Assembly: GCA_905212085.1 (NCBI GenBank)
Contig: CAJMDF010000001.1
Coordinates: forward strand, 16,912 to 80,911
Reading direction: 5' to 3'
DNA: 64,000 nt
Origin: an uncultured Clostridium sp.
Lineage (GTDB): Bacteria > Cyanobacteriota > Vampirovibrionia > Gastranaerophilales > Gastranaerophilaceae
Under the pieces are notes generated by a model. The model saw only the letters and a program-made list of their open reading frames with translations, was not told the DNA's origin and searched no databases. Shown here one piece after another: positions 30,106 through 53,585 of the stretch; position 1 is the first letter of the stretch; each line of letters begins with the position of its first letter. The position numbers were made by a program, and so were the translations under genes.

Positions 30106-30477
30106 ATGGTAGATAAAAAAATAGTAAAAGATGTTGCAAATATAATTGAAGGATTAGGACTTAATCAAAATCCTGAAACAATTTCTATTCTAGAAGATGT
30201 TGGTACAAATTCTAAAATAGATGCAATTAGAGAAATGACTGCTCGTGCATTAGTAAAGAAGAATATGCATGATTCTTTGAAAGTAGTTATTACTAACAAA
30301 GGAAAAGGTATAAATGATATGTCAACAGTTGTTGCAATGAGCACAATTAATGAACTCTTATCATTAAATGACAAGTCAGAAGCTATGAAAATATTAGAAG
30401 ATACAGTAAATGATCATTCTGATGAGGAAGTAAGAGACAACGCGCGTTCAGTGAAAGCTTTAATGGCACTTTCATAA
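30106..30477 (+). CDS. Hypothetical protein (123 aa)
   Basis: Strong RBS GGAGGAGAG. Confidence 0.45.
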   Translation: MVDKKIVKDVANIIEGLGLNQNPETISILEDVGTNSKIDAIREMTARALVKKNMHDSLKVVITNKGKGINDMSTVVAMSTINELLSLNDKSEAMKILEDTVNDHSDEEVRDNARSVKALMALS

Positions 30478-30524
30478 AATAGCGCGGCAAACAAAATATA
30501 TTAAATTTGCCAGATTTCATATAT

Positions 30525-30557
30525 AAAAAAATCGCCTGATTATAAGGCGATTTTTTA
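30525..30557 (+). terminator. Intrinsic terminator (atcgcc...ggcgat plus T6)
   Basis: A-run, 6-bp GC-containing stem, T-run. Confidence 0.6.
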
Positions 30558-30586
30558 TTGAAATATTAATAAAAAATTGATATAAT
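30558..30586 (+). promoter_or_regulatory. Consensus sigma-70-type promoter TTGAAA-17-TATAAT for prepilin-type locus 1
   Basis: TTGAAA at 30558-63, TATAAT at 30581-86, 17-nt spacer. Directly upstream of the leader ORF. Confidence 0.5.
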
Positions 30587-30618
30587 CATCAATGTGATAA
30601 AAATGAAAGGAGCTAGGA

Positions 30619-30720
30619 ATGAAAAGATTTGAAGTCGAGCAGGTACAAAAGTCATACAAATTTGCAGATAATTGTGTAAAAGTGTCTACCTGCCAAGCAG
30701 TCGGGGGGGGGGCAGTTTAA
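30619..30720 (+). CDS. Upstream leader ORF (33 codons, MKRFEVEQVQKSYKFADNCVKVSTCQAVGGGAV). It ends 2 codons after the G tract. One extra G would fuse it to the pilin-like body
   Basis: ATG with RBS AAAGGAGC. Homologous leader at 52640. Frame relationship read directly from the sequence. Confidence 0.45.
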   Translation: MKRFEVEQVQKSYKFADNCVKVSTCQAVGGGAV

Positions 30721-31511
30721 AGCTTGTTACAAAAGCCTTTCATGGGTTATGTAAAAATTTACTATCGGATCAATCAGTACGATTTGGATTTACTTTAGCG
30801 GAAGTATTAATAACTATAGGCATAATAGGTATAGTTGCTGCAATGACTTTACCTTCTCTTATTTCAAATTATAGAAAAAAGCAATATGTCTCTCAATTAA
30901 AGGTTGCTTATTCTTTATTATATAGTATGTCTAGAGACATAATGTCAGAGTCAGATACAACCAGTTGGAAAGATACTTTATTAATATCTGAATTAAAAGA
31001 AAATTTAGGTGATATTGGAAATAGTAATTGGTCATCTCAAGTAAAAAAGCCTGAATATAAAGATATTGTGTATAAGTATCTAAATAAATCTATGAAAATA
31101 GTTCAAGTATCCACATGCAATGGTGATGAGTGTGATTATTCTTATTTGAATGTCCCATCTCAAAAAGGTTCTCATTCCGGTTTGTATTTATTTAAGTTAG
31201 CAAATGGTATTGTTATGGAATTTAGATTTTTTACAGAGGAAAATAGCTCAAATATGGGGTATGTTAATGTTGATGTAAATGGATTTAAAAGACCAAATCA
31301 ATTGGGGCGAGATATATTTCAATTTTATTTTTGGGATGATGGTTCTGTAGTTCCTTGTGGGGCTCAAGCCTTAGCAGTAAAATCGACTCAAAAACAAGAC
31401 TATTGGAGGGAAGATAATTCTTATGCTTGGTCTAATTGCTCTGTGTCAAAGACTTCTTATGGACAAGGCTGTACAGGTAGAGTTTTAGAAGAAGATGCTA
31501 TGTTATATTAA
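30672..31511 (+). CDS. Prepilin-type (type IV pilin/pseudopilin-like) Cys-rich exported protein, locus 1. The called ORF begins at a TTG with no SD
   Basis: G|FTLAEVLITIGIIGIVAAMTLPSL prepilin N-terminal methylation-type motif. C-terminal Cys pairs. Paralog of 52693..53547. Confidence 0.6.
   Translation: MCKSVYLPSSRGGGSLKLVTKAFHGLCKNLLSDQSVRFGFTLAEVLITIGIIGIVAAMTLPSLISNYRKKQYVSQLKVAYSLLYSMSRDIMSESDTTSWKDTLLISELKENLGDIGNSNWSSQVKKPEYKDIVYKYLNKSMKIVQVSTCNGDECDYSYLNVPSQKGSHSGLYLFKLANGIVMEFRFFTEENSSNMGYVNVDVNGFKRPNQLGRDIFQFYFWDDGSVVPCGAQALAVKSTQKQDYWREDNSYAWSNCSVSKTSYGQGCTGRVLEEDAMLY
30703..30712 (+). repeat. Homopolymeric G10 tract (candidate slipped-strand phase-variation switch)
   Basis: Ten consecutive G (count implied by the ORF-track translation RGGGS) in an approximately 30% GC genome. 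Same tract and context in the paralog at 52724. Confidence 0.7.
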
Positions 31512-31553
31512 TAAGATATTCTATATTTTATAATTTTTATCTAATAATATTCT

Positions 31554-31583
31554 AAAAAAGGCTCCTTTTTAGGAGCCTTTTTT
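31554..31583. terminator. Bidirectional intrinsic terminator (aaaaaggctcc...ggagcctttttt)
   Basis: A-run, hairpin, T-run. Between convergent genes. Confidence 0.7.
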
Positions 31584-31586
31584 AGT

Positions 31587-41205: not shown

Positions 41206-41694
41206 ATGCCTTTCAGATACAGGTTACAAAAAGTTCTGGAATTTCGTATTCGTAAAAAAGAAGAACAATTGGCCGTAGTTCAAAAAGCTCAACAAGCAGT
41301 ATTTATTGCGGAAGAAAATATTCGAAAAAACGAAGAAGAAATAAGGACAACAAAACAGAATATGCGTCAAGCAGATCCTATGATGTATGAAACGTATGAT
41401 AAATACTTAATATATCTTTGGGACAAAGCAGAAAAACTTGAACAAATCAGAGTAGAAGCTCAACAAAAGCTTGATGAAGAAAAAGCAAAGCTCGTAAAAC
41501 TGGAACAAGGTGTTAAAGTCTTAGAAAAACATAAAGAAAAACACAGAGAGGCTTACATCGCAGAAGAAAAAGCCGCAGAATTAAAACAGTATTCAGAATT
41601 AGGAGTTACAAGGTTTTTCAGGCAAAGCCACGAAAAAATAGAAGAGGAAGAAGAAATCCTCAAAAAGTTAGAAGAAATAGACGGAGGTAGTTAA
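41206..41694 (+). CDS. fliJ: Flagellar export chaperone FliJ-like coiled-coil protein
   Basis: MPFRYRLQKVLEFR N-terminus resembles the FliJ family. 162 aa coiled coil. Flagellar neighbours. Confidence 0.55.
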   Translation: MPFRYRLQKVLEFRIRKKEEQLAVVQKAQQAVFIAEENIRKNEEEIRTTKQNMRQADPMMYETYDKYLIYLWDKAEKLEQIRVEAQQKLDEEKAKLVKLEQGVKVLEKHKEKHREAYIAEEKAAELKQYSELGVTRFFRQSHEKIEEEEEILKKLEEIDGGS

Positions 41695-41699
41695 TTAAA

Positions 41700-42551
41700 A
41701 TGAATGTAAGTACATCTTCAGCAGCAGCAACTGCAAGCACTTCAGATGTTAGTTCTACTCAATCACAATCTAAGACAAGTAAAACTAAGTCTACTGATAA
41801 ATCTTTTGAAGATGAAATGAAGACTGCTTCTGAGTCTGAAAAAGATAGCAAAGTAGAATCTTCTAAAGATGATAAAAAAGCAGAAAATAATAAAAAAACT
41901 GAAAAAGATTCAACAAAAGAAGCAAATAAGTTATCTCAAGAATTACAAAAAGATGTTGATGATATTGTCCCTGATGATATGTTAAAAGGCGGTGTTAATT
42001 TTACAGATTTTAAATATCATAATGAAGGTCAATCTATTCTTTCTCAAAATATTCAAAACTTAATTAATACAAAAGATTTGATGAGTACAATAAATTCAGC
42101 TTCAACATTTGATTATGATGTGATTAATATGTCTGATAGTGATGCAAATTTCTTTGCTAATCTTGTTCAAAATACTGATATGTCAATGAAAAGCATTGCT
42201 ACTCAAATAAATGATGCTATGGCTAATGGTACAGAAGGAATTCAACAAAATGTTCAAGTATCTACTGTTTTGATGGATAAGTTATCTGAATCAATGAAAA
42301 CAAATCAACCTTTCAGAATTGATTTTGATAAAGATGTTTCTGTTATTTTGAAGGTGAATAAAGACGGTAGTCTTGCAGCTAATTTTATTCCCGGAGATAA
42401 GGCTGTAGAGCAATATTTGAGAAATAATATTTCATCATTACGACAAAGATTTGATGATCAAAATTTACCATATTCAGAATTAAGCTATAGTAATTCTCGT
42501 CAGCAGCAACAAGAAAGACGTAGAAATAATAAGGAGAATAGAAATGAATGA
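41700..42551 (+). CDS. fliK: Flagellar hook-length control protein FliK-like
   Basis: Acidic and K-rich N-terminus. C-terminal Flg_hook-like block. Position between fliJ and a rod/hook gene. Confidence 0.45.
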   Translation: MNVSTSSAAATASTSDVSSTQSQSKTSKTKSTDKSFEDEMKTASESEKDSKVESSKDDKKAENNKKTEKDSTKEANKLSQELQKDVDDIVPDDMLKGGVNFTDFKYHNEGQSILSQNIQNLINTKDLMSTINSASTFDYDVINMSDSDANFFANLVQNTDMSMKSIATQINDAMANGTEGIQQNVQVSTVLMDKLSESMKTNQPFRIDFDKDVSVILKVNKDGSLAANFIPGDKAVEQYLRNNISSLRQRFDDQNLPYSELSYSNSRQQQQERRRNNKENRNE

Positions 42552-43380
42552 TTCTTTTATAACTGCTTTAAATACGCAAAAATCCACTACAAACTGGATG
42601 GATGTTATTGCAAGTAACATGACAAATGTCTATACTCCTGGTTTTAGAGAACAACAAGTTACTTTTAAAACCTTTTTAGGTGGTGCTATTTCTGATGATT
42701 ATGATAAAAAAATGAGTCAAGGTAAGTCAACACCTGGTACTTCAAATGAAAACTTATTTTTAGAAGGTAAGGGGTTTTTCTTGGTAAAAAATGAAGAAGG
42801 TAAAAGTATTTACACAAGATTAGGTGAATTTACCTTTGATAAAGAAGGTGTCTATAGAGATAAAAGTGGCAATACCGTTCAAGGATATATTTTGAATGAT
42901 AAAGGTGAAATTATGCAGGGAACTAAATCAATTACTTCTGACCTTTATCAGCAAACAGCCTTGAAAGGTGGAGCATTAGATATTCCTACAACTAATATTA
43001 AATTGTGGATTGATCCTAATAATGGGAAATATCTTGGGAAATACGATGACTATGAAATCAAAAATGACGGTACAATTTATGGAAAAGCTGATGGCGGAAA
43101 ACGTTCAGTTCCATTATATCGTGTAACTACAAGAAATTTCCACAATGCTGCGGCTCTTTATGAATTTAAACCTGGACAGTTTTTAGAAACAGAAGAATCT
43201 GGAAAACCTGTAATTGGTGTTGGTGAAATCAGATCAGGTCTTTTAGAAATGTCAAATGCTGATTTTAGGGCAAATATTTCTTACTTCCAAATGGCTAAAT
43301 TGCAGATGGAAGTTTCAAATAAATTGATTTCTTCTAATAAAGAGTTACTCGAAGAAGCTCTGAGATTAGTTGGTAACTAA
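42544..43380 (+). CDS. Flagellar basal-body rod/hook family protein (FlgG/FlgF/FlgE-like)
   Basis: N-terminal rod motif SNMTNVYTPGFRE and a C-terminal Flg_bbr_C-like block. Confidence 0.65.
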   Translation: MNDSFITALNTQKSTTNWMDVIASNMTNVYTPGFREQQVTFKTFLGGAISDDYDKKMSQGKSTPGTSNENLFLEGKGFFLVKNEEGKSIYTRLGEFTFDKEGVYRDKSGNTVQGYILNDKGEIMQGTKSITSDLYQQTALKGGALDIPTTNIKLWIDPNNGKYLGKYDDYEIKNDGTIYGKADGGKRSVPLYRVTTRNFHNAAALYEFKPGQFLETEESGKPVIGVGEIRSGLLEMSNADFRANISYFQMAKLQMEVSNKLISSNKELLEEALRLVGN

Positions 43381-43412
43381 TTTTTATATAGTTTAAATTT
43401 TTAAACTCCATT

Positions 43413-44372
43413 TTATGAAGGGACTTTGGTCCCTTTTATTTCTTTTATAATTTCAATAATTTCTTGAGATGCATCATTGATATCAGCAATATTTAGGTTT
43501 ACTAGTTGTGCAAATTCTGCTTTTTTAAATTCGTGCAGTCCCCTATGTTTAAAAAAGTTTTCAAGAAATTCTACTTTTGAGGAGCATTTTTCTAAGTCTT
43601 CAATTGGAGCTAATGAAATATTTTGGGTAGCATAATTCAAGGTTTTTATTATTAATGAATTAGGTAGCATATCTTCAAATTCTCCGCTTTTAAGAAGATG
43701 AATTTTATCTATTTCTCGCAATTTAGGCTTAATTTCCATTAAATTGGATTGTGCATCATTATCCAAAAGTACAAAAATAGGAATTTTTAATTTGTCTGCA
43801 AAGTTGTAAAAATATTTTACAACTTGATTTTTACCGCCTGCCGATAATATATGAATGCCATATTTATTGAAATCATACCCGCAAATTTGAGAAAATTTTG
43901 GAAGTAATATTTCTTCTGTTATTCCCTCACATAAGATTATAGTTTTTATCGGATAGCCAAAGCTTTGGTTATCAGGAATAGTTGCAGAAAGTGTTTTTAG
44001 CCATTTTAGGTTGTTAGGAATATTTTCAGGCAAAAGTTCTATAATTTTATTGTAATTAATATTATTTTTTAAAAGTTTTTTTGTATTTTCACTTAGTTTG
44101 AACAAAGAATTTTCATAATCATAAAGTCGTTGATTTATAATTAAATTATTATTTTTTTCGTTAAAGGAAGAATTAATTATATCTTCTGCGATATTTGTTA
44201 ATTCTTCATAATCCATGTTATCGAGTTCTTGTTTTTTTAATTTAGGTTCAATAAGGTTATTTATTATTATATCTTTAAAGACCCTCAGATATTTTATTTC
44301 AGTATCTTTAAATCTGGTGAGTCTGTCAGCTGATATAGTTAGTTGTTCTTTTGTGAGCGGTTTTATTTTCAA
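43413..44372 (-). CDS. Standalone OLD-type TOPRIM domain protein (putative nuclease) with an uncharacterised N-terminal domain
   Basis: IILCEGITEEILLP (TOPRIM Glu) and VLLDNDAQ (DxD) motifs. No ATPase domain. Confidence 0.5.
   Translation of the reverse strand: MKIKPLTKEQLTISADRLTRFKDTEIKYLRVFKDIIINNLIEPKLKKQELDNMDYEELTNIAEDIINSSFNEKNNNLIINQRLYDYENSLFKLSENTKKLLKNNINYNKIIELLPENIPNNLKWLKTLSATIPDNQSFGYPIKTIILCEGITEEILLPKFSQICGYDFNKYGIHILSAGGKNQVVKYFYNFADKLKIPIFVLLDNDAQSNLMEIKPKLREIDKIHLLKSGEFEDMLPNSLIIKTLNYATQNISLAPIEDLEKCSSKVEFLENFFKHRGLHEFKKAEFAQLVNLNIADINDASQEIIEIIKEIKGTKVPS
43418..43440 (+). terminator. Terminator hairpin after the rod gene (gggac-tttg-gtccc plus T-run), overlapping the 3' end of the convergent TOPRIM gene
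   Basis: Seen directly. Confidence 0.5.
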
Positions 44373-44475
44373 AATTTTATCCCTGATTGTAACATTTGTT
44401 AATTAAATGTAATAAATTTAGCAAATTTTTTCCATTTTATTTTTTTATTATAATAAGTAGTAGTGGAGTGGAATT

Positions 44476-45888
44476 GTGTATTCATTAAACTTTAATACCC
44501 AGCAATATAATAATTATAACACAGTAAAGTCTGTTAGTGCTACCAGGGTTGAAAAAAATGAGCATGCAAAGGAAAACAAACCTTCTTTTACATCAAACCC
44601 TATTATGACACAAGTTCCGTATAATCCTGCTCTTACTGCTTCGAGATTGCGAACAGAATTATCATCAAAAGATGAAAAAAATAAATATAATGAACTTGTA
44701 AAAATTTCTGATAGAGAGACTAAAAAGAATTTAAACATGCTTTTGAAAACAGGCATTTTATTAAATGCTGATTCAAATGATAATTCAACAACTTTGGATA
44801 ATTTGTATAAAATAGCAACTACACAAAGAGCTCAAGGGCTTAGTAATGTTGTTATTTTGAAAAATACAATAGATACACTTGCAAATCCTTATGTGATTAC
44901 ACAACAATTTGGTAATATCCCTGATAAATATAGGGCTCAAGTAGAAGCTGCGGAAAAGAATAAAAATGTTAATTCTACATCTTCATTGCCATTTTCAGGA
45001 GCTTCTGATATTGATGTTGACCATTCAGGAACTTGTGTTGCATCAAGTATTGAATTTAATTTAGCAGATAAACATCCTGCAGAATTCGCAAGATTTGCAG
45101 AAGGTTTAAGTTCTCCTTCTATGAGTGTTCAAAAAACTATTAAGATGAATAATCTTGCTGATAATACATTAGATGCAATTTGGTTATTAAATGCTTTTGA
45201 AATTCCTTATGAAGCTCATGATTTTGACAAGGCAAAATTAACTTTTGCACCTGATAAAAATGCAATAGTAAGAGCATTTATCCAAACTGTAGATAAAGAT
45301 AATCTTGAAAGGACTCCGTTAGATGTATTAATGCAATCTACATTTATGCAAGTTGGTTCTCAACAGTCTTATGATACATTGACAGATAAACGTGCCGGAA
45401 AATTTAACCAAAATGATAAAGGTTTAATTGAATTTGAAAAAACATTCACAGAATCAGTTGTAGAAGATAAAAATAAGATTTCAGTTACATACCAGACAGT
45501 TGATGAAAATGCTCGATTAGTAGGATATGAAACTGATTTTAATACTATGAAAAAACAAATTACAGATGCTTTAAATTTAGGCGAAAATGTAATTATCGGT
45601 TATACTCAAGTTGATAATAATAATACTATAATTAATGGTCATGAGATAACTATTATAGGAACAAAGACTGATAAAAACGGTAAAATGATTTTCATTTGTA
45701 ATGATACGGATGATAATATGTCGAAACCGATAGAATATTCAGAAGATTATTTATTACCGAAAATTCACCATGCAGCATTGCCTCAGGCAGTTGTTGCTGA
45801 TGATGTAAATCTTGTTGAAAACTGGGTGGAAGGATTAAAGACATATAAGGAATTGAAAAAACAATCTCAGTTAAAACAAGCGGCTTAA
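44476..45888 (+). CDS. Hypothetical protein with a papain-like (C39-like) cysteine peptidase signature
   Basis: HSGTCVASS (candidate Cys), NGHEITIIGT (candidate His), ICNDTDD. Confidence 0.3.
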   Translation: MYSLNFNTQQYNNYNTVKSVSATRVEKNEHAKENKPSFTSNPIMTQVPYNPALTASRLRTELSSKDEKNKYNELVKISDRETKKNLNMLLKTGILLNADSNDNSTTLDNLYKIATTQRAQGLSNVVILKNTIDTLANPYVITQQFGNIPDKYRAQVEAAEKNKNVNSTSSLPFSGASDIDVDHSGTCVASSIEFNLADKHPAEFARFAEGLSSPSMSVQKTIKMNNLADNTLDAIWLLNAFEIPYEAHDFDKAKLTFAPDKNAIVRAFIQTVDKDNLERTPLDVLMQSTFMQVGSQQSYDTLTDKRAGKFNQNDKGLIEFEKTFTESVVEDKNKISVTYQTVDENARLVGYETDFNTMKKQITDALNLGENVIIGYTQVDNNNTIINGHEITIIGTKTDKNGKMIFICNDTDDNMSKPIEYSEDYLLPKIHHAALPQAVVADDVNLVENWVEGLKTYKELKKQSQLKQAA

Positions 45889-45967
45889 TGTTTATTTACA
45901 TTAAGTCATTTTTTAGCAAAAAAAATATTGATGATATTTAATTAATTTAAATAAAGGGTGAAAAAAT

Positions 45968-47626
45968 ATGAATTTAATAATAAACGGCTTACCAAAGGTA
46001 TCATTTAAAGCTACAGGTAGTGTGAATCAGGTCCAAAATCAGCCAACTCAACTTGCACCTCAAATAAAGCAGGATACTTTTGAAAAAACAGATAATAAAT
46101 CTGAAGCTAAAGCTCAGGAATATAGTTATCCTAAAAATACAGCAACTCCTCAGTATTCAAAGCCTGATCATATAACCACAAGTATATTTTATATTTCAGA
46201 TTTGCATGGCAAGATGACAAATATGGAAAGAATTTGTGAAATGGCAAGATTATTTGATACCAATAGTACATCTACAGCAAAATTGAAACTTGCATCAGGT
46301 GATATTTTGCTTGGTTCAAATCCAATGACGAATAAAGTAGCCAGTCACTTCCTTAATTGGATTGGTATTAAGGATAACAGCTTAGGAAATCATGAACTTG
46401 ATGCAACTCCTGCTGCATTTGCCGAATCTCTAAAGGATGCAAAATATAATTTGTTAGCCACAAATGTAACTGTAAATCCAAAAAGCCCAATGGCAGGAAA
46501 GATAAAAAAATCAATTATCGAAGAAGATAATGGTGAAAAATTCGGAATAATTGGAACTGCTCCTTCAGATGCTTTGGAAAGAGTTGGTACAAGAGAGTCT
46601 TTAGAAGATATCAAAATTGATAATGTTGATACGACTATTAAAAAAATTCAAGAAGAAATTAATAAATTAAAAGCTCAAAATATTAATAAAATTATTCTAT
46701 TATCACATTCAGGGAAAGATGTGGATAAACGTATTATACAAGAAACATCTGGTATTGATATCGTTTTAGGCGGTCATACTCATGATTTATACAAAGGAGT
46801 AAAAGAAGGTGAAAACCTATTGTATTCAAAATCGGGAGAACCGGTTGTTTTAACTCAAATCGGTAAAGATGGAGAATATGTCGGTGTTCTAAATGTAGAA
46901 TTTGATAAAAACGGTATTTTAACAAAAGTTCAGAATAATGTTATGAGAACAGGTTCTTTTACAAGAAAATTGCCTTTTAAAACAGCAGTAGAATCAATAA
47001 TCGGAAAACCTGAAGTGTTAGGTACAATAAAATCAGCACCTCCTTCTCCAAAAGATAGATTAATTGCAAATAATCCTCATGGAAATATTATTGTAGATGC
47101 AATGAGAAAAGAATTAGGTACTGATATTGCAATCTTGAATGCAGGAAATTTACGTGGATTCTTTGCTGAAGGAGAAGTTGATTCAAGAAGAATTAATGAT
47201 GTAACTCCATTTGAAGATAAAATGATGATTTGTAATTTATCTGAAAAACAAATAGTTGATGCTCTAAAAGTTGGGGCAAAATCATTTGTAAATCCTGCGC
47301 ACAAACCAGGTTTATTACTTGTATCAGGTTTAAATTATACAGTATCTGACAAAGGGCAACTTTTAGATTTATCTTATATTGATAAACAAGGTAATAAAAT
47401 CCCTATTGATATTAATAACCCTAGTACAACAAAAAAATACAGCGTAGCTTGTGATGATTTCTTTGCATATGGTGGGGATGATTATTTACCTGTAAATCAA
47501 AATCCTGATTATATTGTGAAAAAATTTGATGTAGATAAAAATGTGTATACCGCAAATTATATTAAAAATCACAATGGACCAATAGAAATTAAAGAAGATG
47601 ACAGAATAAAAATAGTTAAAGCTTAA
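45968..47626 (+). CDS. Bifunctional metallophosphoesterase/5'-nucleotidase (UshA/CpdB-like)
   Basis: ISDLHG, GNHELD, LSHSG and GGHTHD calcineurin-like motifs, plus the 5'-nucleotidase C-terminal domain. Confidence 0.75.
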   Translation: MNLIINGLPKVSFKATGSVNQVQNQPTQLAPQIKQDTFEKTDNKSEAKAQEYSYPKNTATPQYSKPDHITTSIFYISDLHGKMTNMERICEMARLFDTNSTSTAKLKLASGDILLGSNPMTNKVASHFLNWIGIKDNSLGNHELDATPAAFAESLKDAKYNLLATNVTVNPKSPMAGKIKKSIIEEDNGEKFGIIGTAPSDALERVGTRESLEDIKIDNVDTTIKKIQEEINKLKAQNINKIILLSHSGKDVDKRIIQETSGIDIVLGGHTHDLYKGVKEGENLLYSKSGEPVVLTQIGKDGEYVGVLNVEFDKNGILTKVQNNVMRTGSFTRKLPFKTAVESIIGKPEVLGTIKSAPPSPKDRLIANNPHGNIIVDAMRKELGTDIAILNAGNLRGFFAEGEVDSRRINDVTPFEDKMMICNLSEKQIVDALKVGAKSFVNPAHKPGLLLVSGLNYTVSDKGQLLDLSYIDKQGNKIPIDINNPSTTKKYSVACDDFFAYGGDDYLPVNQNPDYIVKKFDVDKNVYTANYIKNHNGPIEIKEDDRIKIVKA

Positions 47627-47632
47627 TCCTTA

Positions 47633-48295
47633 TTAATATCCGTATTGTTCATGCGAATTTAGGTATTCTTTAACAGTATTCAAAGATGCTTGTACAATTC
47701 TTGTTACTCGAGAAGAAGATAGCCCTACTTGTTTTGCAATATCTTTTACCTGCATATTTCTGTAAAATCTATATTCTACAACAGTTCTTTCTTTAGGTGG
47801 AAGTTTCGCAATAGCTTCTCTAATCATTCTTCCCATTTCTGTAATTTCAGCATTTTCATCTGGTTGAGCATGAGGATCTTTCAAAAAGTCAAATGGTGAA
47901 TCATTATCACTAGCTGCAGCAGCAAGACCGTCAATTGAAAGAATTGTTTCATAGACAGCTTCACGCACTTTAGCTTTTTGCATATCCATTCCTTCAACTG
48001 CTTCTTCTTCATCATATTGATCATCAGGTTTATGTTTTAAAGAGTACCATTTATATCTGATTCTTAATTCATTTCTTATAGCCCATCTTACAGCTGTTGC
48101 AATGTATGCTGAATTATATTTTTCTAATTGCTCTGGTGTTTTATTTTTTATTAATGCTTGGATAGCTAAAATTCCGATTGAAACTAATTCTTCATAATCT
48201 ACCATATGAGCAGGGATTCTTCGATGCTCAACTTTAGCAACTTTTTGAACTAAATCTATATATTCTTGTAATTTATTTTTATTTTCCATAACCAT
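47633..48295 (-). CDS. fliA: RNA polymerase sigma factor, FliA/sigma-28-like (sigma-70 family regions 2 and 4)
   Basis: Region 2 YIATAVRWAIRNELR. Region 4 HTH VKDIAKQVGLSSSRVTRIVQ. Adjacent to flhB. Confidence 0.55.
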   Translation of the reverse strand: MVMENKNKLQEYIDLVQKVAKVEHRRIPAHMVDYEELVSIGILAIQALIKNKTPEQLEKYNSAYIATAVRWAIRNELRIRYKWYSLKHKPDDQYDEEEAVEGMDMQKAKVREAVYETILSIDGLAAAASDNDSPFDFLKDPHAQPDENAEITEMGRMIREAIAKLPPKERTVVEYRFYRNMQVKDIAKQVGLSSSRVTRIVQASLNTVKEYLNSHEQYGY

Positions 48296-48322
48296 GATTA
48301 TAAAATTATTCTAGCATAGAAT

Positions 48323-49399
48323 TTACTTAATTGTACCTTTATTTGTTGTATTTTTCAATTTGTATACAAAAAGTAAGATTTCAGCGATTGCTTTGTATAA
48401 TTCAGGAGGTATTTGCTGGTTTAAATCTACCATTTTGTATAGAGCTCTTGCAACCGGAGCATTTTCAATTACTGGAATCCCATGTTCTTTTGCTATTCCT
48501 ATAATTTTTTTTGCAATTAATTCTGTTCCTTTTGCAATAAGCATAGGGGATGCCATTTCTTCAGCTTTATATTTTAAAGCACAAGCGATGTGGGTAGGAT
48601 TTGTAACGACAAAATCAGCATCTGGTACTGCATCCATCATGCCTTTTTGAAGCATTTGCATACGTCTTTGCCTTAGGGCAGCTTTTACGTTTGGGTCACC
48701 TTCTGTGTTTTTATATTCATCTTTAATTTCTTTAAAAGACATTTTTTGATCTTTTAAAAATTTCCATTTCGTAACTCCATAGTCAGCTGCTGAAATTACT
48801 AAAAAGGCAATGCAGGCTTTGAAAATAAAGTCAGTGATGAGTTTGCCGAATTCAATCATTACTGCGAAATTGTTATCTATAGCTGCGAGCATTAATATGC
48901 TTTCAATGTGCTGCATATAAACGCTCCAACCTATGTAGCCGAGTAAAGCTACTTTTAAAATATTTTTAAATAATTCAAATAATGTCTTAATTGACATGAT
49001 ATTTTTAAAATATTTTGTAGGGTTTAATTTATCAAGTTTAGGCATTAAAGGGGCAGTTGCAACAAGTGGTCCTACTTGAATAAAATCAGCCATTATCGCA
49101 ACGAACCAAGCTATAAAAAGTATAGGCCCAATTATCAAAGCTGCACATTTTATAGTGACTGTTGTAATGTATGTCATGCCTATTTCTGACAGATGCCCAT
49201 TTGGTATTTGTTCATATAGTAAGGTATAGAGCTGTACAATTTGATCCCATACAAAAGGAGCAAGACCAAATATGACGGAAAATAAAATAAGCAAAGATAA
49301 GGCTGTTGAAAAATCTTTTGATTTAACAACCTGTCCTTCTTTTCTTGCCTGCTCGAGTTTCCTCGGGGTGGCGTCAAATTGTTTATCTTCATCACCCAT
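48323..49399 (-). CDS. flhB: Flagellar biosynthesis protein FlhB (type III export gate)
   Basis: N-terminus ...KQFDATPRKLEQARKEGQV, 4 TM helices, NPTH autocleavage motif. Confidence 0.85.
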   Translation of the reverse strand: MGDEDKQFDATPRKLEQARKEGQVVKSKDFSTALSLLILFSVIFGLAPFVWDQIVQLYTLLYEQIPNGHLSEIGMTYITTVTIKCAALIIGPILFIAWFVAIMADFIQVGPLVATAPLMPKLDKLNPTKYFKNIMSIKTLFELFKNILKVALLGYIGWSVYMQHIESILMLAAIDNNFAVMIEFGKLITDFIFKACIAFLVISAADYGVTKWKFLKDQKMSFKEIKDEYKNTEGDPNVKAALRQRRMQMLQKGMMDAVPDADFVVTNPTHIACALKYKAEEMASPMLIAKGTELIAKKIIGIAKEHGIPVIENAPVARALYKMVDLNQQIPPELYKAIAEILLFVYKLKNTTNKGTIK

Positions 49400-52603: not shown

Positions 52604-52612
52604 TGTTATAAT
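52604..52612 (+). promoter_or_regulatory. Extended -10 element (TGnTATAAT) for prepilin-type locus 2
   Basis: TGTTATAAT is 27 nt upstream of the leader ATG. Confidence 0.4.
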
Positions 52613-52639
52613 AATATATAAAAAGGAAAGGAGCTGTAT

Positions 52640-52741
52640 ATGAAAAGATTTCAGGTAGAACATACACAAAAATCTTGCAAATTATACGATAATTGTGTTG
52701 GATTACCTACGCACGTAGTGCTCGGGGGGGGGGCAATTTAA
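52640..52741 (+). CDS. Upstream leader ORF (33 codons, MKRFQVEHTQKSCKLYDNCVGLPTHVVLGGGAI), homologous to 30619..30720. One extra G would fuse it to the pilin-like body
   Basis: RBS GGAAAGGAG. Frames checked: ATG frame differs by +1 from the TTG/pilin frame, and G11 joins them. Confidence 0.45.
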   Translation: MKRFQVEHTQKSCKLYDNCVGLPTHVVLGGGAI

Positions 52742-53547
52742 AGCTTGCAGGACAAGGCTTCCAAGGAGTTGAAAAAGTAAATAAAAAATGCTATATTAGT
52801 GATATGTTACATCACGATAAAAATAAAAAAGCATTTACCTTAGCAGAGGTTTTAATAACTTTAGGTGTAATTGGTATTGTTGCAGCAATGACAATGCCAT
52901 CTTTAATTTCAAAGTATAATGAAAAGGCTTGGTTGACTGCATTTAAACGCTCTTATACTATTTTGAATCAAGCTTACCTAAGAGTTTATGAAGATATTGG
53001 AATATCTAAAAATTGGTGTGATAAAAAAAATGCAGAATGTTCTCAAGTTTATTTTAATTTGTTATCACCATATTTAAGTATTTCAGAAGTTTGGGGAAAT
53101 AATCTCCCTCAGCATTTGAAAAGAATAAAATATCGAGATTTAGATGGATCTGCTTTTAGTTTATTTAGTAATTATTATTGGTTTGTCTTAAATGATGGTG
53201 CTTTTGCTGGAATATCATATGATTCAGAGTATAATATGCCATTATTGTTAGTGGATACAAATGGTAGTAAGAGGCCTAATCAATTTGGAAAGGATTTGTT
53301 TTTTATAACTTTAAATAATCGAGATGATTCTCCTGTTCTTTCAGGATATTCAAAATGGTGGTTGTATGATGGGGTATTTTGTTCTACAACAAATTCCTCA
53401 GGTGCTTGGTATAGAGGTGGAGGTTGTTCTCTATGGGTAATTGCTACGGGTAATATGGATTATTTACATAGACAAATTACTTTAGATGAATGGAAAAAGA
53501 ACATTAAAAAGTTATTAGTAAAATCAGGGGCCAGTTCGTTAAATTAA
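52693..53547 (+). CDS. Prepilin-type Cys-rich exported protein, locus 2. Alternative short-leader start at ATG 52804 (MLHHDKNKKA|FTLAEV)
   Basis: A|FTLAEVLITLGVIGIVAAMTMPSL prepilin motif. Paralog of locus 1. Confidence 0.6.
   Translation: MCWITYARSARGGGNLKLAGQGFQGVEKVNKKCYISDMLHHDKNKKAFTLAEVLITLGVIGIVAAMTMPSLISKYNEKAWLTAFKRSYTILNQAYLRVYEDIGISKNWCDKKNAECSQVYFNLLSPYLSISEVWGNNLPQHLKRIKYRDLDGSAFSLFSNYYWFVLNDGAFAGISYDSEYNMPLLLVDTNGSKRPNQFGKDLFFITLNNRDDSPVLSGYSKWWLYDGVFCSTTNSSGAWYRGGGCSLWVIATGNMDYLHRQITLDEWKKNIKKLLVKSGASSLN
52724..52733 (+). repeat. Homopolymeric G10 tract (candidate phase-variation switch), locus 2
   Basis: Ten consecutive G. Same position as in locus 1. Confidence 0.75.
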
Positions 53548-53585
53548 AAAAAATATAACCCGTAATAAACGGGTTATATTTTTTA
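53548..53585. terminator. Bidirectional intrinsic terminator (ataacccg...cgggttat plus T-run)
   Basis: A-run, hairpin, T-run. Between convergent genes. Confidence 0.7.

Follow-up and report, generated by a model that had tools for sequence, protein, structure and literature searches.

The subject of this study is a pair of genes for type IV pilin-like proteins, each interrupted by a run of ten G residues (G10), in a 64-kb stretch of DNA (the window) from an uncultured gut Melainabacterium with a G+C content of 30.3% (G 16.6%, C 13.7%). Locus 1 occupies window positions 30525–31585 and its paralogue, locus 2, positions 52604–53584. At both, a short open reading frame (ORF) with its own initiation signals, here called the leader ORF, runs through the tract and stops shortly after it, and the pilin body follows in a different frame. 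A locus is called ON where leader and body are in frame and OFF where they are not, and these calls rest on the tract length in the assembly consensus. The features of locus 1 are listed below (↓ marks a predicted cleavage site).

~30525–30556, + strand: terminator-like hairpin (A-run, stem tcgcc/ggcga, T-run), by sequence inspection
30558–30586, + strand: sigma-70-type promoter TTGAAA-17-TATAAT with an extended -10 TG, by consensus scan (11/12 matches)
30606–30613, + strand: Shine-Dalgarno (SD) sequence aaaggagc, 5 nucleotides before the ATG, by sequence inspection
30619–30702, + strand: pre-tract leader coding segment MKRFEVEQVQKSYKFADNCVKVSTCQAV, ATG at 30619, by ORF translation
30703–30712, + strand: G10 homopolymeric tract, the putative switch, by sequence inspection
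30718–30720, + strand: TAA codon that closes the leader ORF when the tract is G10 (OFF), 5 nucleotides past the tract
30713–30788, + strand: post-tract leader in the body frame, ..SLKLVTKAFHGLCKNLLSDQSVRFG, up to the predicted prepilin cleavage site G↓F
30789–31511, + strand: mature type IV pilin-like protein FTLAEVLITIGIIGIVAAMT..., 240 residues plus stop
31552–31585, no strand assigned: bidirectional intrinsic terminator past locus 1, 15-bp stem with T-runs on both strands, by scan

As read from the sequence, the terminator-like hairpin at about 30525–30556 would end transcription of the upstream gene and insulate locus 1. A scan for consensus terminators gave no match at this hairpin, probably owing to its A and T runs, which pair into the stem. 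The leader ORF comprises 33 codons and passes through the tract as GGG GGG GGG GCA GTT TAA. From 30672 to 31511 the body frame is uninterrupted; it reads ...SVRFG↓FTLAEVLITIGIIGIVAAMT... and is reached by the addition of one G, which corresponds to the -1 frame of the ribosome. Between the tract and G↓F this frame contains no ATG, GTG or TTG codon, and the TTG at 30672 that ORF callers choose as the start has no SD sequence. With G10 the locus encodes a 33-residue peptide; a conceptual G11 gives a 297-residue fusion with a leader of 56 residues.

Locus 2 (52640–53547) repeats this layout, with an SD sequence, a 33-codon MKRF... leader, a G10 tract, a stop and a frame offset.

52604–52612, + strand: extended -10 promoter element TGTTATAAT, by sequence inspection
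52627–52634, + strand: SD sequence aaaggagc
52640–52723, + strand: pre-tract leader MKRFQVEHTQKSCKLYDNCVGLPTHVVL
52724–52733, + strand: G10 tract, one G short, with the same offset as at locus 1
52739–52741, + strand: TAA codon that closes the leader ORF in the OFF state, 5 nucleotides past the tract
52734–52833, + strand: post-tract leader in the body frame, ..NLKLAGQGFQGVEKVNKKCYISDMLHHDKNKKA
52834–53547, + strand: mature pilin-like protein FTLAEVLITLGVIGIVAAMT..., preceded by KKA↓
53548–53584, no strand assigned: terminator hairpin past locus 2, common to the convergent gene, by scan

The promoter of locus 2 was not reported by the consensus scan because it has no -35 match. Here G10 gives a 33-residue OFF product, recorded in identical form on about 29 contigs, and a conceptual G11 gives a 302-residue fusion with a leader of 64 residues. 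A conserved KKCYxSD[MI]xHH motif lies in the post-tract leader, as does a single internal ATG (52804) that no SD sequence precedes; the Met of this motif is I, V or L in homologues, so ATG 52804 is not a conserved start. The conceptual G11 fusions of the two loci are 36% identical over their full length (E = 1e-36) and align on either side of the tract (MKRFxVExxQKSxKxxDNCV...GGGG[SN]LKL..F.G). Judging by base composition, 64 kb should contain about 0.001 runs of at least ten G or C; two were observed, both in the same functional position. They are the sole G runs longer than six in the window, the next longest being a single G6.

Much of the layout of locus 1 had been described in an initial annotation of this DNA. 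The ribosome-binding site and ATG at 30619, the 33-codon ORF that crosses the G10 to an early stop, the body without an ATG, the TTG without an SD sequence and the improbability of the tract by chance can all be recognised in the sequence and in the run counts. Its terminator-like element and TTGAAA-17-TATAAT promoter are also present, the latter near-perfect rather than perfect, and the body is indeed one G away from the leader frame, in the frame labelled +1 there, which for the ribosome is the -1 frame. The fused leader, put there at about 58 residues, is close to the 56 that we computed. The family-wide architecture, including poly-C versions, and a strong skew towards tracts one nucleotide short go beyond that annotation and are described in the following sections.

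Tract length and reading frame across the family

More than 1,500 homologues of the pilin body were found, nearly all in gut metagenome-assembled genomes (MAGs) of Candidatus Gastranaerophilales (Melainabacteria), and many of their called ORFs start shortly upstream of a GGG(G) motif. We surveyed 80 loci from species-representative genomes together with loci from an exact protein look-up, giving 92 pilin N-termini. A G or C tract of at least 8 nucleotides lies within 600 nucleotides upstream of 38 of these (~40%), with a modal length of ten; the remaining paralogues have ordinary SD-ATG-MKK[GA]↓FTLAEV leaders. Such tracts are largely confined to this position, as 38 of the 41 found in 365 kb sit upstream of a pilin N-terminus. 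The spacer from tract to pilin varies from 22 to 462 nucleotides and is open in the body frame at 38/38 tract-bearing loci, compared to 1/38 and 4/38 for the two control frames.

Sequences around the tract are conserved to different degrees. An SD sequence of the GAAAGGAG type precedes the leader ATG in most homologous loci, and the pre-tract leader of locus 1 is conserved in locus 2 and in many metagenomic loci (MKRFxxExxQKSxKxxDNCV). Most homologues have no ATG, GTG or TTG between tract and cleavage site. Within the NL[KE]L subfamily a TA[AG] stop lies 5 nucleotides past the tract in the OFF frame at all ten loci. Directly after the tract, C[AG]A-TTTA[AG][AG]GC is conserved at the DNA level at both window loci (30713–30720 and 52734–52741) and in ten related loci. 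In the G10 frame it invariably supplies the TAA or TAG stop 5 nucleotides on, and in the body frame there are non-synonymous K/E/R changes.

Some loci carry C10 instead of G10 in the same position, coding PPP instead of GGG. The presence of both poly-G and poly-C there speaks for the homopolymer, and not the peptide that it encodes, as the target of selection. C10 loci with the one-short offset include L023 (1469–1478), L027 (1395–1404), L034 (1257–1266), L043 (1461–1470), L044 (1458–1467) and L060 (1471–1480), and they carry a different leader class (M.YNKA.. / ..APPPP).

The register of leader and body follows the tract length. Among the species-representative genomes, tracts of length ten, G or C (~25 loci), leave the leader one nucleotide short of the body frame; the two G11 loci (L031, L038) have it in frame; G12 is one nucleotide too long at three of four loci; and G9 (two loci) and G8 (one locus) are one nucleotide short, each in its own register.

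One and the same allele occurs at different tract lengths. On a syntenic contig (L087; NCBI GCA_964324235.1) the tract is G11 and encodes an in-frame protein of 316 residues (P0125), MKRFEVEQAQKSYKFADNCVEVSTCETVGGGGNLEL...RFG↓FTLAEV. The same allele with identical flanks has G10 in other samples (L092, L093); L001 also has G10. Orthologues of locus 2 from four samples (L088–L091) have G9 and an identical 97-nucleotide spacer, compared to G10 in the window. Full-length ON proteins with a complete leader are also encoded at other loci (P0322, P0336, P0399, P0403, P0341, P0408 and P0417). A protein search with the short leader alone yielded mainly fragments, along with a few ON examples. When contigs were counted within clusters of at least 90% identity, 7 ON and about 84 OFF contigs were found for the P0336 locus, 3 and 36 for the L010-like locus, and 2 and about 35 for the locus-2-like cluster; ON is thus the consensus on approximately 3–8% of contigs per locus at these three loci. 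In human gut metagenomes, the C that bounds the tract was lost at L114 and L106, which read G11+ATTTAAAGC and G10+AATTTAAAGC, respectively, so that the frame is changed by a route other than the gain or loss of G.

The annotation of these genes is affected as well. Public gene calls start at a TTG inside the leader ORF or at an internal Met (30672 and 30843 at locus 1; 52693 and 52804 at locus 2), giving proteins of 279, 222, 284 and 247 residues. For the family this amounts to a systematic annotation artefact, with spurious starts, truncated genes and additional orphan 33-residue ORFs. The phase state, in turn, could be read straight from metagenomes.

A pilin-like protein behind a long predicted leader

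The two window proteins exceed the cut-offs of the prepilin N-methyl family PF07963 (21.5 and 26.6 bits; cut-off 21.2) and of TIGR02532 (21.9 and 21.3; cut-off 16.3). Their predicted cleavage motifs, RFG↓FTLAEV at locus 1 and KKA↓FTLAEV at locus 2, lead into a hydrophobic alpha1N helix. Features in common with type IV pilins are the G↓FTLxE motif, including Glu5, the hydrophobic alpha1N segment of about 21 residues and the N_methyl matches (Berry & Pelicic 2015, PMC4471445). A confident AlphaFold2 (AF2) model of the body (predicted local distance difference test score, pLDDT, 87.9) consists of a disordered leader, an N-terminal helix of 52 residues and an alpha/beta head, a predicted lollipop-like form that may correspond to that of type IV pilins (PMC4471445). 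Since a Foldseek search of this model against the PDB returned no significant match, we refer to the body as a divergent type IV pilin-like protein; it has the motifs of the class, and its membership by fold is weakly supported by the model. PF20318 (DUF6613), which is precomputed for many homologues, was not matched by hmmscan in the window proteins or in four homologues.

The ON-state leaders measure 56 (locus 1), 64 (locus 2) and 75 residues (P0125). Known class III leaders have 6–26 residues, up to about 30 in type IVb, and end in Gly (PMC4471445). The leaders found here, at about twice the longest known, therefore lack the shortness that characterises class III signal peptides, and if leaders of 56–75 or more residues are truly processed, the known limits of these signal peptides would be extended. 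In an AF2 model of the ON-state protein, in which a leader domain was sought, the leader formed a low-confidence beta-hairpin and the tract region was disordered. Some relatives have leaders of more than 100 residues because repeat-element sequences are inserted in frame.

Several features of the leaders were observed in passing. Repeat-element-like inserts lie between tract and pilin (L087 2610–2700; N-termini of P0274, L082 and P0006–P0036) and leave the frame open; their translations include HSEGEYPKESSQLLK..LLRQKSRNDR, CHPELVSGS.. and MLKRVQHD. Truncated tandem cleavage-site modules (..AFTLAEGATHV....[RK]xA) are present upstream of the real G/A↓FTLAEVLI in several relatives (leaders of L022, L047, L071, L074 and L085; P0031, P0296 and P0329) and may be decoy or duplicated prepilin sites. 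The KKCYxSD[MIV]xHH Cys/His motif of the post-tract leader (window 52780–52815, KKCYISDMLHH) recurs in many paralogues, and also in P0155, P0322, P0336, L020 and L031. This motif and the pre-tract xKSCKxxDNCV may jointly make up a small element for metal binding or recognition; at the Cys/His motif AF2 gave only a short low-confidence helix.

The leader would be processed by a PilD-type peptidase and the protein assembled into a pilus. No pil/gsp machinery was identified in the window near the two loci. For a Gastranaerophilus genome, pilA, pilB, pilC, pilT and pilD have been reported (PMC5877343).

Probable slipped-strand phase variation and its rivals

We consider it probable (roughly 0.72) that both loci are simple-sequence-repeat contingency genes for a type IV pilin-like surface protein, subject to phase variation at the DNA level. 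The strong promoter, SD sequence and ATG would start transcription and translation, and the ribosome would read the hydrophilic leader containing the tract. In the G10 state of the assembly, translation would end 5 nucleotides past the tract, and the body, which lacks its own start codon, would yield no pilin. One G would be gained by slipped-strand mispairing as the DNA is replicated, and the resulting G11 would fuse leader to body. This prepilin would enter the membrane via the signal helix of class III, would presumably be cleaved at G↓F (in the case of locus 2, A↓F) by a prepilin peptidase of the PilD type, and would then be assembled by the pilus machinery. As a genome holds many tract-bearing paralogues, most of them one nucleotide short, a population would express a small and stochastically changing subset of its pilins.

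Judged from sequence comparison, the pattern bears the signatures of a hypermutable simple-sequence contingency locus: an improbable homopolymer near the 5' end, a frame toggled by ±1 nucleotide, length polymorphism at the same locus, and natural ON and OFF alleles. Slipped-strand phase variation of a prepilin-type gene, OFF in this assembly and ON at G11, with an unusually long leader, had already been proposed in the initial annotation. The leader lengths given above agree with that proposal. So do the G11 of L087/P0125 against the G10 of L092 and L093, the approximately 38 loci in which length predicts frame, the G9 and G10 forms of locus 2 orthologues, and the full-length ON proteins of several loci.

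Several observations weigh against this explanation, the first group of which concerns the spread of tract lengths. A metagenome scan for the leader class of the window yielded 26 human-gut loci, 23 with G10, two with G9 and one with G11. The frame could be resolved in 18 of the 23 G10 loci and was one nucleotide short in all 18, and the sole G11 is followed by a compensating deletion of a C and hence is out of frame. None of the 26 loci is ON; a single assembly (ERZ773145) has six loci of this class, all OFF. Over the representative and metagenomic sets together, about 46 loci are one nucleotide short, two are in frame and three to four are one nucleotide long. Length ten accounts for about 80% of tracts, and a freely switching tract might show a wider spread. 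The other points concern the leader. Codon-position entropy, computed before and after the tract to look for coding selection in the leader, gave no clear wobble signature (0.76/0.71/0.84; 0.47/0.35/0.46), and the open-frame test was used instead. Position -1 at locus 2 is Ala where Gly is canonical, and cleavage of a prepilin with a leader of 56–75 residues is without precedent (PMC4471445).

The skew is consistent with a mutational equilibrium biased towards contraction, acting alongside selection for a repertoire that is OFF by default. In Bifidobacterium breve, a G10 tract is far more stable than a G11 tract, and polymerases acting on synthetic G/C11 controls show a deletion bias, with about 5% -1 as against 1% +1 products (PMC9187656). 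The skew would also be expected from a programmed mechanism at the RNA level, and it is the most interesting loose end of the analysis.

Such programmed recoding is unlikely as the sole explanation, and we rank it behind DNA-level phase variation as a live minority rival or an addition to it. The one-short G10 or C10 would then be a selected functional state that yields full-length prepilin at a low, set efficiency, either through RNA polymerase slippage that adds one G or through slippage of the ribosome by -1 on G GGG GGG, and the G11 and G12 alleles would be occasional mutants. It would account for tracts of exactly ten nucleotides, be they G or C, that nearly all require one additional nucleotide (a -1 shift), and for the assembly with six tract loci and none ON. 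A tract of ten also matches the 9–10 bp RNA:DNA hybrid of RNA polymerase, which slips efficiently on runs of nine A/T, and low-level frameshifting on a G7 run rescues the thymidine kinase of herpes simplex virus (PMC5009743). However, in-frame G11 recurs at the same locus on 3–8% of contigs, and the existence of both in-frame G11 and one-too-long G12 alleles means that the frame offset is not fixed, which recoding would ask for. The OFF frame meets an immediate stop past the tract. Switching at the G-tracts of B. breve was demonstrated at the DNA level (PMC9187656), and a contraction-biased equilibrium, selection for OFF or the deletion bias of sequencing polymerases could also produce the skew.

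The flanks of the tract do not favour recoding either. When 30 nucleotides upstream and 45 nucleotides downstream were folded at 37 loci, no hairpin or pseudoknot was shared, and the mean z-scores against shuffled sequences were +0.34 upstream and -0.37 downstream. An Rfam scan of 30450–30900 gave nothing above the gathering score, with sub-threshold matches on the upstream terminator hairpin only. Two more specific candidates were dropped. Hairpin-stimulated slippage or programmed ribosomal frameshifting was suggested by small hairpins seen by eye at the two window loci, and the shuffle test over the 37 loci showed no consistent structure; the T TTA AAG heptamer past the tract, considered as a -1 site, shares its phase with the body frame alone and would be unproductive, since it would lead into a closed frame. 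An elaborated form, in which "ten, one short" is itself the functional design, is likewise improbable: the repertoire would be genetically OFF with rare readthrough by -1 ribosomal shifting or by polymerase slippage on a tract as long as the RNA:DNA hybrid, the long, cleavable leader, which tolerates insertions, would serve as a disposable recoding cassette, and G11 in the DNA would form a heritable second tier.

It is very unlikely that the 33-codon ORF is a separate small or regulatory ORF and that the body is translated from a start of its own, independently of the tract. The candidate starts are those picked by gene callers, TTG 30672 at locus 1 and ATG 52804 at locus 2. The latter lies ten codons before the cleavage site and would give an ordinary-looking leader, MLHHDKNKKA↓F. 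Neither start has an SD sequence, however, and TTG 30672 lies upstream of the tract within the leader ORF. At locus 1 and in most homologues the stretch from tract to cleavage site is free of start codons, and homologues have I, V or L in place of the Met at locus 2. Initiation close to the pilin would also leave unneeded the open body frame that extends back to the tract in 38/38 loci, and natural fusions of leader and body occur.

Least likely of all is that G10 is a miscalled G11 or that these genes are frameshifted pseudogenes: homopolymers are prone to error, deletions outnumber insertions when polymerases copy G/C11 (PMC9187656) and mixed populations can be miscalled, but G10 recurs at dozens of diverged loci in independent assemblies from different pipelines (Logan, ENA, NCBI), an error of about 5% is insufficient to overturn a consensus, G9, G11 and G12 are each called in a frame-consistent manner, which indicates that callers resolve tract length, and decaying genes would gather stops, whereas spacers are open at 38/38 loci and bodies are intact.

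Relation to known systems

The mechanism favoured here, DNA-level phase variation, is itself already known as that of a classical contingency locus. The AT-rich genomes of Campylobacter jejuni and Helicobacter pylori carry rare runs of about 8–12 G or C in surface-structure genes, and the Opa proteins of Neisseria form a multi-paralogue repertoire that switches independently through pentanucleotide repeats, with most copies OFF. These genes belong to other classes than the pilin-like genes, encoding glycosyltransferases, proteins of flagellar modification and outer-membrane adhesins. About half of the contingency loci of C. jejuni are ON in any one genome, whereas more than 90% of the loci studied here are OFF, at one particular length. 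The poly-G tract of Neisseria pilC lies in the region that codes for the signal peptide. This poly-G frameshift turns a type IV pilus-associated gene ON or OFF by ±1 G (Jonsson et al. 1991, cited in PMC4471445). PilC differs from the proteins described here in that it is a pilus tip/assembly adhesin with a Sec signal, not a class III pilin, and is present in one to two copies in Neisseria.

The closest mechanistic match is found in the sortase pilus switches of B. breve UCC2003, bbr_0113a/b (G11) and bbr_1889a/b (G10) (Penno et al. 2022, PMC9187656). There, too, a gut commensal has an upstream ORF with promoter, SD sequence and secretion signal that leads into an intragenic G-tract of 10–11 nucleotides, followed by a pilin ORF without an SD sequence or signal of its own, and the reference genome is OFF. 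The gain or loss of a G restores the pilus, and equivalent tracts are conserved across the genus (PMC9187656). In B. breve, a Gram-positive actinobacterium, however, the pilins are Sec-dependent and of the LPXTG sortase type, and each pilus operon has a single tract. Here a diderm Melainabacterium carries pilin-like genes of type IV (class III signal) that stand alone, the tract is located within an extended prepilin leader, and it occurs across a large family of paralogues, poly-C versions included.

In the literature on Melainabacteria or Gastranaerophilales in connection with phase variation or pilins, we found no earlier description of such a system. What is new is the lineage, the type IV pilin-like class with a tract inside an extended class III leader, the extent to which it is used (tracts, of G or of C, in ~40% of the members of a large set of paralogues), the predicted leaders of 56–75 or more residues and the near-uniform default of ten, one short. 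Gastranaerophilales are uncultured, non-photosynthetic relatives of cyanobacteria from human and animal guts, and their interaction with the host is almost uncharted. Our results suggest that they switch the members of a large set of type IV pilin-like surface proteins ON and OFF stochastically. Stochastic control of the surface is a hallmark of immune, phage or niche-switching pressure and was until recently documented mainly in pathogens.

Two further observations concern the source organisms. Some records with pilins of the Gastranaerophilales type bear unrelated taxon labels, namely Brachyspira sp. CAG:484 (L045, L058, L065), Clostridium sp. CAG:967 (L044, L069) and Heliobacteriaceae bacterium (L067, L081), which are probably legacy mis-assignments of MAGs. 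Between the two loci, the window also contains a flagellar cluster (41206–49399) with a FliK-like hook-length protein, a protein with an FlgD/E-type hook domain, FlhB and a sigma-28-like factor, of which region 4 only was matched. This cluster is consistent with a motile Gastranaerophilales genome.

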